This document shows, piece after piece, positions 43-40,427 of a stretch of DNA of 64,000 bases (position 1 is its first letter; each line of letters begins with the position of its first letter). The notes beneath the pieces are model-generated. The model ran no database searches, had not been told where the DNA came from, and worked only from the letters and a program-made list of their open reading frames with translations. The DNA is from Patellaria atrata CBS 101060 (Eukaryota), in contig MU006089.1 of assembly GCA_010093705.1 (NCBI GenBank), positions 1,118,455 to 1,182,454 on the forward strand, given 5' to 3'. Made by a program: the position numbers and the translations under genes.

Positions 43-1422
43 CTAATCCTTTGGTTCAATGAGATCTGGAATTTGCTCAGGTCTGGCTTTGCCCTCGAGG
101 ATATCTGTAAGTTCGTATTAGCTTTTTTTATCTTTCGGTAGCAAGAGAAATGGTTGGCCCTACTGTAGACTGCGGTCATCAAGGGGAATTCTTCCTCAAG
201 GTTTTGACTCCTGAGCCACTGATTGACTTCATATGCCGTTGAAGTTCCCTGCAACTTTTGTCCATTCAGTTCAGTCCTCTCCACTTCATCAATACTGACG
301 CCACGCTCAATGCTCATCTTCGCGCAGCGGAAATTTCTGCCACCCGAACAACTGGTGATCATGTCTGCGACACCACAGCTCTCCTCAGTAAAGGTAGCAG
401 CTCTCACAGAATCAGCGAAGAACATCTTGCCAAACTTTACTTCCTCGAGAATTCCAATCCTCATCACTGCCGCTTTAGCATTGTCTCCCCATCCTAGACC
501 TTCCACGAAACCTGCAGCGAGGGCGACGACGTTCTTAAGTGCACCCCCCAAGGATACACCGGCCACATCAGATACCATTCGGACGTGGAAGTACGGTCTG
601 TGGAAAAGTTTCTTGACATTGTCGTGATTGAGGGGAGGATAATCCGCTGGCAGAGGTTGTAACCGGGCGTGTTTAGGAGCTGGTGGAGTATCTGTATTGG
701 ACATGGTAAGATCCACTTGCGAGTGATGAGGAGACCCATGGGGAGTTACCCTAGGTGTGGGTTGCCTAGAGTCCATAGGCGGTGGATCATATGCCACAGT
801 AGTCTCACACCATTTCTCGAGGGCTACTTCGGTGGCGATGTTCGCCCCAGACAGAGCACCACAGTAGATTCCTAATTCAGATCCTATCACCTCTGAGAAA
901 AGCTGGACTCCTTTGTTAGACACATCTACACCTTTGGTGCAAGATATGGCTCTGGCAAAAGGCACGATCTTGCCCCTTAGTTGCTCACATGACTTCGCAA
1001 TGAACTGATGCGGTAAGCAGAAGACCAGTATTGTTGAATCTTTTGCAGCGTCGGGAAGGGAAGGATTGGCAACCACATTATGAGGAAGCGGGATGTTAGG
1101 TAGGTACTTGACGTTCTCGTGAAGAGCATTGATTAGGTCTGTCAACTTTTGTGGTTTGTTGCAGAGTGAGGAGCCAGGATCGTAGTGTTTGGACTCTTTG
1201 GGTACAGTGACTTCTTCCTCATACACCCACATCTGGATCTCGGGTTCGAAGAGGTTTGGATTTGCGGTTGCATTTTCAGCACAAATCTTTGCTATCGTGG
1301 AACCCCTACATAGTATTAGTGTTGACCGTTCTCCGTCTTTCTAGCAGGGAAGATACTCACCAATTTCCAGATCCCACCACGGTCACTTTGTGCTTCTTTG
1401 AGGCAGGACCAAGGGTTGCCAT
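43..1422 (-). CDS. GPD1: NAD-dependent glycerol-3-phosphate dehydrogenase (2 introns; possible upstream start at 1539)
   Basis: Spliced translation gives [16 protein letters not shown] (Rossmann fold), [46 protein letters not shown] and LNGQKLQG. Last exon [19 protein letters not shown] ends at TAG 43-45. Confidence 0.96.
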
Positions 1423-2447
1423 GTTGTCGAATCTGTGTCTTCTGGTGGTATGTAATTGTTGAGGTGTAAGCAGGCGGATTCTTGTAAAGCGGTAAGGTGC
1501 AAAAACTTTGGAGTGAAATGAAGCAGGCAAGCTTAGCATACGCAACGGTTGGATTTATAGTAAGGTGAGAGAAACGGTCACGTAGCAGAAGGATCGAATC
1601 TTATGGTGATTAGAGATCACAAGCCAAAGAATATGTTGAGCCGAGAAAGAGCGACCTACGACCTCAAGGGTTGCATCATCCGGACAGGGACGTTGGCCTG
1701 TCGTTCCTACCTAATCCCTGTAACGCTTCTAGACCCTCATATGCCAGATTCCGCGAAAATAGAAACTGTACGGTAACTTCAGGGCTTTTCATACTCGATT
1801 ATGCTGAAGTACCTAAATGGCTACTACTACGTATATAGAGGTTCTTTGTCAAGCTAAGTATTACACCTTCAAGCACAAGTAAAGTATTCTGTAACACTAC
1901 TTCGCGCAAACCGTAATGGCCGAGTGGCCGACAAGTACTGGGCTCGGGCATGCCGGAGGTGTCACCGAGGCTCGGTTCTCTTTGCGATGTTTTGCCTCCC
2001 AACCTCGAAGTGCTCCTTCGGTTCCCACGCTCGTGCTAGCCTGGTCTATATTCTATCATAGTAAGAATATATCGGAGTATATGATGAGAAGGGACGCCCA
2101 ATGTGATGTAAGACTAGGTAGGAACTCTTGAGTTGACTTCATGGTCAGAGTCAATTAGCATAAAGAAGTGCCAGTAGTCATAGTAAGAATCATTGTTGTA
2201 TCGCTATCTCCTAAGGTAATTTCCCCTAATCATGCAGATGCTCGCAAAGTCAAAACCTCGCCGAAAAGATCAAATAACACCGACGCTCAACTGCAAGATA
2301 AAGGAGAGGAAAAATTGATACGACCCATAAGTGAATCGTATCAAACATTAAGACAAGAACACATCCAATGACTCGAGTGTTTCCCCTTCCACCTTCATTA
2401 CGCTCCAGCCTCTTCGTACCGTGTATGATAAACTCGATTCCCTTTCC

Positions 2448-3124
2448 TTATAGAACGAATCCGAAGATACCCAAGAGACCTGCGGCAAGGGCTGGGGTAC
2501 CATAATCACGGGCAAAAGCGAGAGGGACGGCGGCGCCACTGGACGTCTCAGCGGGAGCATCGGCAGTTTCTGAGGCAGCGGTAGAGGTGGCGGCAGCTTC
2601 AGATGTTGTGGTGGTAGAAGTTGTAGTGACAACGTTCTCGGACGCGTTACGATTGCCGCAAACAACACTCAAGCAGTCGGTTTGCTGAGCGAGGTCACTC
2701 CCAGCTCGCTCTACACACTGGCCCCTCCATACTCCGCATTCAAGGGATGGTAGTGTCTGATCGAAATCCGTGATATTTGGGCTGCTACCAGTGCAAGTGC
2801 ATTTCCACTCAAGGGTGTCCTAGCCGGAGCAGAGCTCGTCAGTACTGTGGAATTGTTTGAATGAAGTGAATGGAGAATTCAACAATGGATGCGCCAAAAA
2901 GGAAGGGTAATTACCGCATCGCAATCATTATCCGCTGGTCTTCCGTTGCAAATCATAGGACAGGTATTTTGTTGAGCGCGACACCAACTAATTCTGATAG
3001 GACGATCGACCGAGTTTGGATCAACGGTGTAGTCATTTGTCGTATTTTGCGACACAGCAAGACCAGCAAAGGTCGAAGCGGCGATGAGGAGCGAAGTGAA
3101 GATCATAGTGGCGGTGATGTTCAA
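2448..3124 (-). CDS. Small secreted Cys-rich, Ser/Thr-rich, probably GPI-anchored cell-surface protein (1 intron ~2820-2914)
   Basis: N-terminal signal peptide; Cys pattern WC..QQNTCP.IC...DC...KCTC...EC...QC...DC..VC; Thr/Ser/Ala-rich stalk; SSGAA omega-like site followed by a hydrophobic C-terminal tail. Confidence 0.85.
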
Positions 3125-4235
3125 ATGGATGTACCAGTCTGGGAAAAGGTGGAGAAGGACGCGTTAGCACTTGCTACTCAATCGAACAAGGGAGCTCCAT
3201 GATGAAAGTTTTGCTGGCATTGATCAGAACTTACAAATATAATCGGAATTTTCGATGACAGTCGGATGCTGCAACGAAGTAAGAGAGCAACGATGGGAGT
3301 GAAGACTATGATGATGAATGTTGGTGGGAACAATTGAAAGCGCGAGTTGAGAATCTTATGTACGGTATCTCGATGCGCTTGGTCAGAATCGCATGTTTGA
3401 GCGTACGCGGCAATTTTAGGCGAAAATACCAACCAAATTTCCGGAAAGTGCAATTTCATACGCTTTCGTAATATAAGAACCGTTATTATTATTATTGACA
3501 GCATCAAGGCTACCTCATTGCATGTTTCTAAGGTATTCATTCTTCTTTGCACTTTATATCTCAACAACATCTGATCAAGCCTCTGCAGGTACTCTATAGA
3601 TAAACCTGCATCACCACCAAGCTGAGGTACATCAAGCAGATACAGCTGTGTTGGGGAAGTACTGAGGTGTGCAGTAAGTACAAAGTCCAGTACAGTGGAG
3701 GCTACGGTACAGATCACCTCAGATCATGCGGTTTCAATACTCATTAATAGAAAACTGACGATAGATTACGCGCACATGTTTAATGAAGCAATTAAAAGAG
3801 CAATGGGAGAATCTTTGAATTACCCGATATCCAAGAGATCTTCCCCAGCAACGGCCACGATCATGGCCCGCTGCCCAATGAAATTTGCCCAAAATCATTC
3901 ACACGAAACGCGTCGGCGATAAGTGAGATTCACTATAACCAACACAGCACATGTACTTTAGCGTATTTTCACTGGTTGTTAATTTTGTCTCAAGAGTCTT
4001 GCACATCTAACTAGCTGAAAGAGGGTTTCAAGAAAGCGCTGCAACCATCATCGCTGAGACCCCGCTATGCTGTTCCGCCAATGATCTTGAGGAATGACTT
4101 TTGGACGCCAGAGAACGGGCGGACAGAAGAAACAATGTGTTGATAACCACTTGCAGCGGAACCGATGATCATAGCGGGCGGTGCCGTCTTGTGCACCAGC
4201 AAGCCGTCATACCTTAGATTCCTTTAACCAACGCT

Positions 4236-4243
4236 TATATATA
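4236..4243 (+). promoter_or_regulatory. TATA box upstream of a hairpin
   Basis: TATATATA followed by a CT-rich tract (4268-4285), a typical fungal Pol II core promoter layout, with no convincing protein ORF downstream. Confidence 0.45.
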
Positions 4244-4287
4244 CCTCACGCCCCTCACTCGTCTAGACTTCTTCTCTTCTTCTTCAG

Positions 4288-4443
4288 CGCCACCTGCTTC
4301 AACCTTCAGAGAGGCGGAGCTCACATTAGAAATAGGCGCGTACGATGTTGAATATAGCCCCAAACGCAAGGAGCTCACAACATCGTCCGCGTCTATTAAA
4401 TGAGTCGTCACAATCTATCTAGAGGTTGAAGCAGGTGGATGCG
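4288..4443 (+). ncRNA. Long fold-back hairpin; candidate microRNA-like RNA (milRNA) precursor or structured ncRNA
   Basis: Perfect 16-bp inverted repeat (4290-4305 / 4423-4438) enclosing a nested 20-bp stem (4331-4350 / 4378-4397; one G:U, one mismatch), with G:U-containing pairing between the two stems. Confidence 0.55.
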
Positions 4444-6316
4444 GAAAACCCTCAGTGCGGTGCTGCCTGTTTTCAGCTACCATATTTTGTGGAGTGGTGA
4501 TGTGTTGGGTCTGTCGGCATATCAAGTCGGTCGACAAGATCTGGTAGCTGGAAACAGGTAGGCCGCTATCGCTCTTTTAACCTTCATTTGGGTTTTGTTT
4601 CTGAAGGAACGGATGCACTGGACCGATGTTGCATAATAGCCGAAAAGAACCTTTCAAGAAGGATAATCGCATCAACGGCCGAAATGTTTTCACAGATGCA
4701 ATCCTCCCGTCTATGGCTCAGGCTCACGCCACTGGTACGATATGTACTGTCACTCTTCTGGTTACAAAACTCGTCAGGTGCCAGAAAAGACCTTGATATC
4801 GCCAAAACATCATTTTCACTAGTCGCAGCTGGCAGTCTTGCTTGCTATACTGTTGTCGTGCGCTCACCAGTGGATACTCGAACCTCGGGTATCGCTAGAT
4901 GGGAAGATATACACGATCTTCGTTCGTACAGCTCGCAGCCATCTTTACAGTCTACTTCATTTTGTACAGCGGGGTCAAGCTATCATTCAAGTCCATCCGT
5001 ATAGTGGGCCAGGAGAAGCATACGACAGGAAGGACAAACATTGAATGAGCGGTCTGTTCTGACCTCAAAGGCGTCTTCAGCGGATTCCTGATGATCGTTC
5101 ACGAAGAGATTCTGTACAGTACCAGTACAGTAGTCTAGATGTACGCCAGTCATGCGGCATATCGCTCTTTTTGGCAAACACCGAACACTAGATGCAGGAT
5201 ACGAATTTCGGGTCAAACAGGCGAACAGATGGATTTCAGGACAAGTCAACATCGGCGCCGTACCTTACAGTATATCAGGTACGAAACGTGGATATGCACC
5301 GTCAGCATGAAGCGAGAGGCAAGATTCTCATCGAGGAAGCTCGAAAGCGAATTGTCTCCATCATCCAAGACGACTCGTATCCTTCTGGCAGGTGATCTTG
5401 ATTGCTCGGTTCTGAGAGTCTGGTTTAGCATTATGCACAGTGCGTCTGTTCAATAAGAATAATTGAAGAAAGTCCGGACGATTGATTTCCATCTCCACGT
5501 GATGTCGAAACTCCGTTGAAGTCTCCGCGAGTGACTTTGGTACCTCTTGCATCTTTTGTCCTTATCGTTCTTCAGCCCACTCCCGTCTTTGAGGTAAACA
5601 AACTCGAAAAAGCTCCTCCCATCTGAGCTGCCTTATGTCGTCGATGGCTGAATTCCTGGTTACCGGTGTAAATCCCGTCCATGACTGTGAGCATCGTCAG
5701 CCAACGAAGGGGCCACTTGACCTCCCAAGATTCATTGTCGAGGTGTGAAAAGTGAAAAGTGTGAACAGTGAAGCTTATTATTCGTCAATGAGCTCTCTCC
5801 CCGCGTTTTCCCCGCCATGACTTCAAAGCGCCAAAGGGATATCTTACCACAACCCCTGCTATCATCCCCATGTAGCTCATGCCATCATCACCATAAATCT
5901 CCACCTTTGAGGCAAAACCTCGCAGAGAACATGCGCCGAGCCTGTGCGCTCCACGAGCCGTATCCCTCTCCATCCCGCGTGCACACTCGATATGATAGGC
6001 TTCTAGCTTCATCGGGTAAACATTTCTGGGGATGATGCTGCGTTTGCCGCTCGAACTATCTCCCAGGATGTAAGGTCAATAAGGTCGTGGGACGTGGATC
6101 TGCGCTATGGAGTACAGAGATAAGTAATGCTGTACAAAAGTCCGTGGATGCAGGGGGGTGGAAGTTCCTCTTTAAGTATGGCATCTTAGAAGCGTACATG
6201 AACGTATAAACTCGGGAAACCCGTGTCTCATATTCTCATTCCCCATGCCCTCGCCTTTTCTAGCTCCCCCGGTGAAGATTTGCGATTTCAAGAGCTCTGA
6301 AGGGAATACTGGAACC

Positions 6317-38600: not shown

Positions 38601-40066
38601 GTTGGGGTCTGATAAAGTCCAGATTTTCTCCAAGTCAGGTTTCTCTAGACCACTTTGGCCAAAAATCTCAATAGCTTGATCCCCACTAATGAACCCTTTA
38701 TTGAAACCATCCCATGCTCTGAATAAGTCATCGTAGATTTTCTTCTCGTCCTTTGTTACCGCCCAAGGGACAGTGGCGTTGCCCTGGAGACCACTCGTTG
38801 TGTACCCACCTTCTCTCCCGGCTTGAGGCATCATTTGCTGTTGCAATGCGGCAATATTCGGGAGGCCAGTTGCGGGAGCGTTTACAAGACCCCATTGTCC
38901 CGGTCTACCGGTTGGTTGAGCATTCAATGGTGCAAGTCCTATCTGAGAGGGTGAGACGCCGGAACCAAAGCCGCTTGGCATGGGCGGCATGGGTGGACGA
39001 GGACCGGCATAGCCGGTCGGTTGGGTTAAATTGAAACCCGTCGCTTGAGTCGAGAGAGGGGGTACAGAAGGTACCTGACCAAAATTCTGAGATTGACCCG
39101 GGAATCCTGTCATCGTCGGCTGCTGAAACCCAGTAGGTTGCGCGGTCAGTTGGGAGAGAAGCTGACTATTCGACTGTTGCGGCTGGGGCTGCTGGATCGC
39201 CGGTGGTGAGTTATGGCTTGTTGGGGCGTCAAAGGTTGGAGCGTTACTCCGCGCAGGAGCTTGCGGACGATCATCAGGGACACCAAAAGATATGATATCA
39301 ACCATGCTGGACACCTCATTCATGATACGTTCTGGAAGCGCAGGGGGAAGATCCTTGCCTACAATCTTCAAGTTGCAAAGATACATGGCCAGTGCAAACT
39401 CTGGGAACAAGAGCTGACCCGATTTGGTGGTATCGGAGAGTGTCCTATCGTATGTTAGTTGTGGTCATAAAAGATCTTGATTGAACATAGCTAAAGCTAT
39501 ATGGCAAGATTGATGTAGCAGAATTTGGCGAGCGTGTATTTCCCATACCATATTTGAGATAGAGACTCTCCCGGGAGCTTAGATCGCATAAGCAGATCCT
39601 TAGCCTTTTCTCCAGACAAGGCTTGATCGTTCCCAACCGCCGACTTAAACAGTTGCTCAAATTTGGCCTGATCTTGCGCCGTGATGAAAGATAATCTGAT
39701 ATTAGGTATCTTAGATCTTGCTGGCCCTGAATTCTGTTCTTGGACTGGTTGAGATAAAGGCGTGGAGCGGAAAGAATCGGCTATCTGACTGGATGTCATG
39801 CCTGTGGGCTGTGGGAATTGTTGCGGCGGTGGTTGTGAGAACTGTTGTTGCTGCTGCTGAGGCTGCTGCTGCTGCTGGAAAGATTGCGAAGCATTTTGCA
39901 TAGGATATCCCGTGAACTGAGGGTTCTGCTGAGGGAGCGGCGGAGGAGGAAGATTCGATTGCTGAGTGTATTGCTGGTATCCAGTAGCTTGAGGATGCTG
40001 TATGGGTCCTGGTCCCATTCGGCCAGAATTCGACCCTCCTAAAAAGCTATTGGAACCAGAATACAT
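35696..40066 (-). CDS. PAN1: Actin cytoskeleton/endocytosis scaffold Pan1 (2 introns)
   Basis: MYSGSNSF start, QPTG repeats, [21 protein letters not shown] (EH1), [12 protein letters not shown] (EH2), coiled coil, NPF motifs, polyproline, C-terminal WH2 ([17 protein letters not shown]). Confidence 0.96.
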
Positions 40067-40427
40067 GACGAAAATTATAAAAAGGAAAAAGTATTCGTGA
40101 GACTGGTGTGTAGTAGGTTTAGTCTCTGGGGATGGTCGACAGCATCGACAGCACGTCTAGGGGACGGAGTTGCGTGGACAAGCTTGGCGGCTCATCTGTC
40201 AGTAAGATAACTTGCTTCGAAACAATACTGGCTCTAATTAGCTACAAGGTATCTGTAAGTATCCTATCATTGTGCTTGATACTGTACGATAGAAACTCTA
40301 CTTGTTATTAGTCTACCGGCGTCAAAACTTCTGCTCTGACAAGCTTCTGCCAGCTCTAAGACCTAGAAGTCCCCGTCTTCAACAAACTTCCACCACTTCT
40401 CTAAGAAAGCACCTGTGTACCATAAGC

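Follow-up and report, generated by a model that had tools for sequence, protein, structure and literature searches.

The locus lies in what we call the window, the whole 64-kb stretch of DNA that was analyzed. The window is fungal, and the flanking gene for glycerol-3-phosphate dehydrogenase (GPD) has Dothideomycete relatives, the closest nonidentical one at 77%. The gap containing the locus is bounded by a DUF7707 gene on the minus strand and by an MFS transporter gene. A first-pass annotation had described this gap of about 3 kb as having no credible gene, in agreement with our finding that none of the five gap ORFs scanned reached the Pfam cutoff. A tRNA search of the gap found none. The Rfam search proposed in that annotation gave no family at the gathering score for the locus, and the four weak matches at an E value of ≤10 were judged to be chance. 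Beyond the match of the first hairpin (HP1) described below, no transposon homology was found in the gap. Upstream of the locus, a small hairpin at positions 3661 to 3723 had a weak Rfam score (E value of 0.03, below gathering).

A TATA box, TATATATA, and a CT-rich tract are present upstream of HP1, as had been noted before (Table 1). In the region from 3245 to 6316, each strand has two TATA[AT]A words, and TATATATA is one of them. The role that we assign to the CT-rich tract is based on what is generally known of promoters in filamentous fungi. No run of five or more T's occurs until position 5168, and only runs of four T's precede it. Because no T run directly follows the hairpins, unlike the Pol III-transcribed milR-1 to milR-4 as they appear in the accessible text of PMC3547838, Pol II is the likelier polymerase for this locus.

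Table 1. Features of the two-hairpin locus, in window coordinates
Feature	Position	Strand	Remark
Putative core promoter TATATATA	4236-4243	.	Palindromic; strand not set by the box
CT-rich tract	4244-4286	+	Likely start region of a predicted Pol II transcript
Hairpin 1 (HP1)	4287-4443	+	Outer stem 4287-4310/4418-4443 and inner stem 4331-4351/4377-4397, with a weak middle
Candidate star strand of guide 1	4290-4312	+	Departs from the transposase motif at 4306-4307
Inner duplex of HP1	4331-4397	+	No target found
Candidate guide 1	4417-4438	+	Antisense to the HLLQPLD codons of pogo/Fot1; 5' U at 4418
Hairpin 2 (HP2)	4457-4566	+	48 pairs, including 10 G:U; specific to the + strand
tRNA-end mimic, candidate guide 2	4469-4482	+	5' U at 4464 or 4468
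Apical stem of HP2, rich in G:U	4490-4529	+	No target found
Opposite arm of hairpin 2	4542-4563	+	Primer-binding-site-like; alternative guide

HP1 was largely as first described. Positions 4290 to 4305 are the exact reverse complement of positions 4423 to 4438, and the inner stem (4331 to 4350 with 4378 to 4397) contains one G:U pair (4336/4392) and one T/C mismatch (4341/4387). The two short helices drawn in the middle both use T4405, so that only one of them can hold this residue. Folding was compared with shuffled sequences on both strands, as the first-pass annotation had suggested. The region from 4280 to 4450 folded at -77.8 kcal/mol on the + strand (z score of -9.07), and none of 200 shuffled sequences was as good; the minus strand folded at -79.8 kcal/mol (z score of -8.40). 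HP1 alone thus has no strand preference. The earlier argument that its G:U pairs reflect selection on a + strand RNA fails for HP1 alone, since the minus strand folds equally well.

A second hairpin (HP2), overlooked previously, begins 13 nt after HP1. Its folding energy was -70.3 kcal/mol on the + strand (z score of -10.05) and -36.8 kcal/mol on the minus strand (z score of -4.24), and of all 120-nt segments of the 64 kb, the one with the lowest GC-corrected folding value is at this hairpin. Because HP1 shows no strand preference by itself, the case for the + strand rests on HP2. In a joint fold, the two hairpins formed side by side with mean pair probabilities of 0.92 to 0.98 (0.93 and 0.92 for HP1). 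Among ungapped stems of the window they rank highest, with scores of 62 and 60 on the + strand and of 47 and 43 on the minus strand. A 160-kb sample from other parts of the genome had one stem scoring ≥60, and 947 kb from other fungi had such stems at seven places; since they are so rare, the adjacency of two strong ones is not attributable to chance. G:U outnumbered A:C combinations 14 to 3 (P = 0.013), only when the stem ends were those chosen by the fold, and 5 to 1 inside stems defined by Watson-Crick pairing. The informative differences between arms were all (3/3) on the putative star strands. As the first-pass annotation supposed, the locus is best read as a small-RNA precursor, but that annotation had taken one hairpin as the unit, which comprises two, and had named no target.

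Other hairpins were also recorded. A weaker one in the window (39941 to 40090) had a z score of -3.98, with 1 of 200 shuffled sequences equally good. Another single-copy multistem hairpin (L301:9313-9486, G000:C1:3009313-3009486; z score of -6.37) has a tRNA-His gene about 1 kb away, and its pairing with the zinc-knuckle region of pogo was at the chance level. Long imperfect hairpins near GPD in other fungi (L026:10285-10472, L026:13444-13561, and L091:7174-7385) may be miniature inverted-repeat elements (MITEs) or small-RNA loci.

HP1 and HP2 each had one match in the 28.7-Mb assembly, in which copy counts are lower bounds. Sequencing runs X1 and X2, probably of DNA and perhaps the source itself, were identical to the window over the stretch, and run X3 contained two low-depth pieces identical to the window (4601 to 4789 and 5035 to 5258), which we left out of the evidence. 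The first-pass annotation had named many dispersed copies with target-site duplications as the sign of a MITE, whereas a single copy of each hairpin was found. The inverted arms, of 16 to 24 nt around about 100 nt, do look terminal, but they match an internal coding motif rather than the ends of an element (see below). With one match per hairpin (a lower bound) as well, it is extremely improbable that the locus is a MITE or another mobile foldback element.

The neighborhood was then compared with 80 fungal loci from metagenomes (L025 to L104), several of them near-duplicates and some too short. The DUF7707 gene lay beside GPD in 27 of the 80. In the window, GPD and this gene, which encodes a secreted protein, lie within positions 114 to 3244. 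At the syntenic place in these 27 loci, neither a blastn match nor a strong hairpin was found; the fungi of the 80 loci were 65 to 74% identical at GPD. According to the accessible text of PMC9757828, milRNA hairpins are mostly kept only among close species. Because GPD identity was only 65 to 74% and milRNA conservation is this narrow, the absence in the 80 loci says little.

The first-pass annotation had proposed a product of about 20 nt with a 5' U from the 3' arm of HP1. An unguided genome search with this 20-mer, allowing three mismatches, gave 9 off-site matches (control, 12). One of them, in L007, is a DDE_1 transposase, matched in antisense on the codons for HLLQPLD, and the reverse complement of positions 4417 to 4437 translates to this same peptide. 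HLLQPLD ends in the Asp that closes the catalytic DD35D triad of pogo/Fot1 transposases; in 25 of 30 loci, this residue follows the second Asp of the triad at a distance of 35 residues. The arm had been picked correctly, but the register that fits the transposase site begins at 4418 and not at 4420, with penalties of 2.0 to 3.0 versus 4.0 to 5.0 on L105, L108, and L111. A general description of the DDE/D triad is given in the accessible part of PMC4188875.

The best 30 of the 66 DDE_1 matches of the genome were scanned with the 4417 guide. Its best site was at the motif in 28 of these 30 loci, with a penalty of ≤3.5 in 8 and ≤5 in 13. At a penalty of ≤3.5, it ranked first among the 63,980 21-mers of the window; at looser cutoffs, it was not the top 21-mer. 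Pairing was poor (penalties of 5.5 to 8) in 17 of the 30 loci, some of them with long open frames. In a set of 182 partly overlapping loci of the pogo, gypsy, copia, LINE, Tc1, hAT, and Helitron types, with the MULE family outside the search set, guide 1 had four distinct sites at ≤3.0 (three subfamilies and a mutated variant), while none of 25,523 controls had four and two had three. A peptide test made no prior choice of family and used 251 seven-residue words, each coded in at least three different ways in transposon loci. HLLQPLD was the only one of these words present in the six frames of the window. The expected number of such matches was 0.06 for the whole window and, for the 290 hairpin positions, 1.3e-4, or 1.3e-3 with a looser set of 2,334 words.

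The match between HP1 and L105 covers 23 of 26 nt, that is, the size of a small RNA. The flanks of the motif were not significantly pogo-like (P = 0.17 to 0.33), and an 8-nt near-diagonal run linked the 5' arm to pogo sequence downstream of the motif (P = 0.03). The 3' arm keeps the motif at two letters where the 5' arm does not. A guide starting at U4418 pairs with L105 at positions 1 to 11; on L108 and L111, two of the three best subfamilies, its positions 3 and 6 are mismatched. Duplex energies were -28 to -32 kcal/mol, versus -42 kcal/mol at a perfect site. Genome-wide, 33 HxLQPLD sites were found (control, 3). No second hairpin carrying this motif was among them: the four sites previously unlinked to pogo or HP1 were one pogo site and three without a stem. 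Well-paired pogo subfamilies had one to three intact motif sites each and poorly paired ones two to seven, which are too few to test for escape. At L116:825-1040, the 5' ends of two pogo copies meet head to head in a near-perfect inverted repeat of 104 bp, which might act as a natural dsRNA trigger.

The 5' arm of HP2 carries a different match. Positions 4469 to 4482 are identical to the last 14 nt of the mature tRNA-Met(CAT) encoded at L323, including the CCA that is absent from the gene itself, and 15 of 16 nt are identical when the match is extended. The tRNA-like arm end had been noted before the comparison, which covered 30 of the 39 tRNA matches; the longest end match of the other 29 tRNAs to the HP2 arm was 8 nt. 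This arm is the only place in the window, on both strands, that matches the last 12 to 14 nt of any of 57 modeled tRNA ends. The L323 gene has A1:U72 and three G:C pairs in the anticodon stem, which we take as initiator features, so that L323 is presumably an initiator-type tRNA-Met (tRNA-iMet). The 3' arm of HP2 is complementary to this initiator tRNA. The 6 nt beyond the CCA of the arm are identical to the trailer of the tRNA gene. The matches of HP1 and HP2 to transposon hallmarks are independent of each other.

These matches bear on two other readings of the locus. It might be a nonfunctional relic, made of short captured pieces (a fragment of a transposase and one of an LTR/primer site or a tRNA) that were duplicated in inverted orientation and of which only the universally conserved bits can still be recognized. 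The genome is full of broken transposons (66 DDE_1 and 78 RVT_1 matches) and has inverted repeats made by transposons; the 8-nt run near pogo, the tRNA gene trailer after the CCA, and the lack of a homologue in the 80 fungal loci also fit. Against this, all seven codons of the motif are kept (7/7) while its flanks are not significantly pogo-like, and two adjacent hairpins, one with a catalytic motif and the other with a tRNA end, would rarely arise by random capture. The + strand specificity of HP2 and the TATA/CT box immediately upstream also count against a relic, and we regard it as fairly unlikely. The locus might also be another type of structured noncoding RNA acting uncut, such as a domain of a long noncoding RNA, a tRNA decoy, or an inhibitor of priming, as could be expected from the complementarity of HP2 to the initiator tRNA and from a transcript that might be long, given the lack of a T run of ≥5 until 5168. 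This is very unlikely considering that the Rfam search returned no family at the gathering score and nothing convincing at an E value of ≤10 and that the near-continuous duplexes of about 20 bp are of the Dicer type.

We then looked for targets of HP2 among long terminal repeat (LTR) elements, of which a minority had a readable 5' end. The primer-binding-site word complementary to the tRNA 3' end was not enriched in the assembly, which has N stretches (20 matches versus 20 in the control), nor was it with RIP-tolerant letters (41 versus 67), and none of three matches inspected was an LTR junction. The one full-length copia 5' junction read had an internal tRNA-Met primer site (13 of 14 nt), not one for the 3' end. 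The 3' arm starting at U4542 paired with a copia U5 word at positions 1 to 13 in 4 of 14 copies, and 18 of 127,974 window words reached the same pairing. At a penalty of ≤4.5, the 4 of 14 copies were matched by 22 of 127,958 window 21-mers, for a target picked post hoc. The U5 word, with which this arm pairs moderately, is a possible target. The copia family concerned (L376, L199:751-1018, and related copies; 41 LTR matches) ends its U5 with 12 nt identical to the 3' end of tRNA-iMet. Its primer-binding site matches the anticodon arm of the same tRNA, and the primer with which it pairs may be the 5' strand of a half-tRNA.

For two of the four stems, no match to conserved transposon words was found even when wobble pairs were allowed, and their genome matches were at the chance level only. 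Among the candidates tried, no other stem matched reverse-transcriptase, integrase, hAT, or Tc1 motifs better than chance. Pairing of 4509 with a copia RNase H site and of 4300 with a pogo site 28 nt downstream was either at the chance level or due to self-complementarity of the element. The 5' arm of HP2 reached a penalty of 3.5 on the sole Helitron, as did about 2% of controls. Viral contigs containing the core inverted repeat of HP2 (27 stretches) had no similarity beyond 16 nt. Short words common with Neurospora milR-16 were not collinear and were taken as chance. In the published milRNA tables of PMC9757828, as far as they are accessible, no most-abundant sequence matched in a partial motif search, which covered two words in all nine files, six in file 2, and four in file 8.

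Genome searches allowing three mismatches also gave some antisense sites in host frames. A real milRNA cluster with host targets or none, in which the transposon and tRNA matches merely mark the origin of the arms, would explain the structural evidence equally well and would agree with the poor pairing of many pogo families and with the lack of an enriched primer-site target. However, matches to the host were at the control level (9 versus 12, 2 versus 3, and 4 versus 1 off-site and control matches), and codon identity with the transposase is kept on the guide arm, not on the star arm. We consider this reading unlikely.

Two Dicer_dimer matches were found in the genome, together with five Piwi matches at four places, two of them stop free. 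The locus combines its folded structure, its copy number, and its two sequence matches in a genome where Dicer and Argonaute genes and the target transposons are present. Judged from sequence, it is somewhat more probable than not that the locus is a single-copy, host-encoded, bicistronic gene of two hairpins for milRNA or hairpin RNA directed against transposons. Under this reading, Pol II would start behind the TATA/CT box and produce a + strand RNA in which two long imperfect hairpins form, and Dicer would cut duplexes of about 21 nt. Argonaute would load the 5'-U guide from 4418, which could pair with the mRNA of the pogo/Fot1 transposase where it encodes the catalytic motif, a site that pogo presumably could not easily change. 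Guide 2, from the basal stem of HP2, would act on the priming signals of LTR retrotransposons, either as a mimic of the tRNA-iMet 3' end in the manner of miR845 or through the opposite arm against the tRNA-like U5 word. A bolder version, which we hold tentatively and regard as possible rather than probable, is that the locus is a hard-wired polycistronic array of fungal small RNAs against invariant hallmarks of several transposon classes, here the catalytic motif of a DD35D transposase and the signal for tRNA priming in LTR elements. Such an array would provide an innate, broad-spectrum defense, independent of quelling and RIP, even against elements that the genome has not yet met, and the two orphan stems would then aim at further parasites.

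The locus has a stable imperfect hairpin precursor and lies outside coding sequence, transposons, and structural RNAs, as milRNA loci do. In the accessible texts on fungal milRNA loci (Johnson et al. 2022, PMC9757828; Yang et al. 2013, PMC3547838; Dahlmann and Kueck 2015, PMC4425646), comparable features are an intergenic imperfect hairpin with a TATA-like element, a possible 5'-U product of about 21 nt, and perhaps weak conservation beyond close relatives. Unlike the usual loci in these texts, ours has two tandem hairpins with four duplexes, and its predicted targets are hallmarks of transposons. According to the part of PMC9757828 that is accessible, few fungal milRNAs have confirmed targets and most have no known job; the well-confirmed targets listed there are host or plant genes.

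Plant miR845 pairs with tRNA-Met primer-binding sites, and its origin from a tRNA or from an inversion of an LTR with its primer-binding site has been discussed (Borges et al., 10.1101/203612, accessible part). As in the miR845 described there, one arm of HP2 copies the 3' end of tRNA-Met, here over 14 nt with CCA; different from it, our locus is fungal and has a second hairpin alongside that is predicted to act against a DNA transposase. No match to the Rfam family MIR845 was found at an E value of ≤10, nor were complementary primer-binding sites, a feature of MIR845, enriched in LTR elements of the same genome. Because homology to the family model and the primer-site features are lacking, we do not file the locus as a MIR845 member, and we treat it as a candidate rather than an assigned milRNA. 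The hairpin RNAs (hpRNAs) of Drosophila are likewise lineage-restricted hairpin loci that silence selfish genes, lie far from their targets, and consist of inverted target fragments, as far as the accessible text of Vedanayagam et al. 2023 (PMC10317233) describes them. Their targets in that text are meiotic drivers, whereas those predicted here are transposons, and the complementarity here extends over the length of a single small RNA only, at the motif that is most conserved.

We found no comparable locus in the open literature searched, although bioRxiv supplements may list some. In plants, one miR482/2118 guide covers the diverse NLR family through the codons of the P-loop motif. The predicted guide 1 similarly lies on codons of a conserved motif, although in a fungus and on the catalytic motif of a transposase. 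The job proposed for the locus is precise and testable, since it comes with a candidate guide, a predicted site of cutting in the mRNA of the transposase, and a mimic of a tRNA end. All fungal genomes could be screened for hairpin arms that are antisense to conserved transposon motifs or identical to tRNA ends. If real, the locus would be an independently evolved fungal counterpart of miR845 and of the motif-targeting plant miRNAs.
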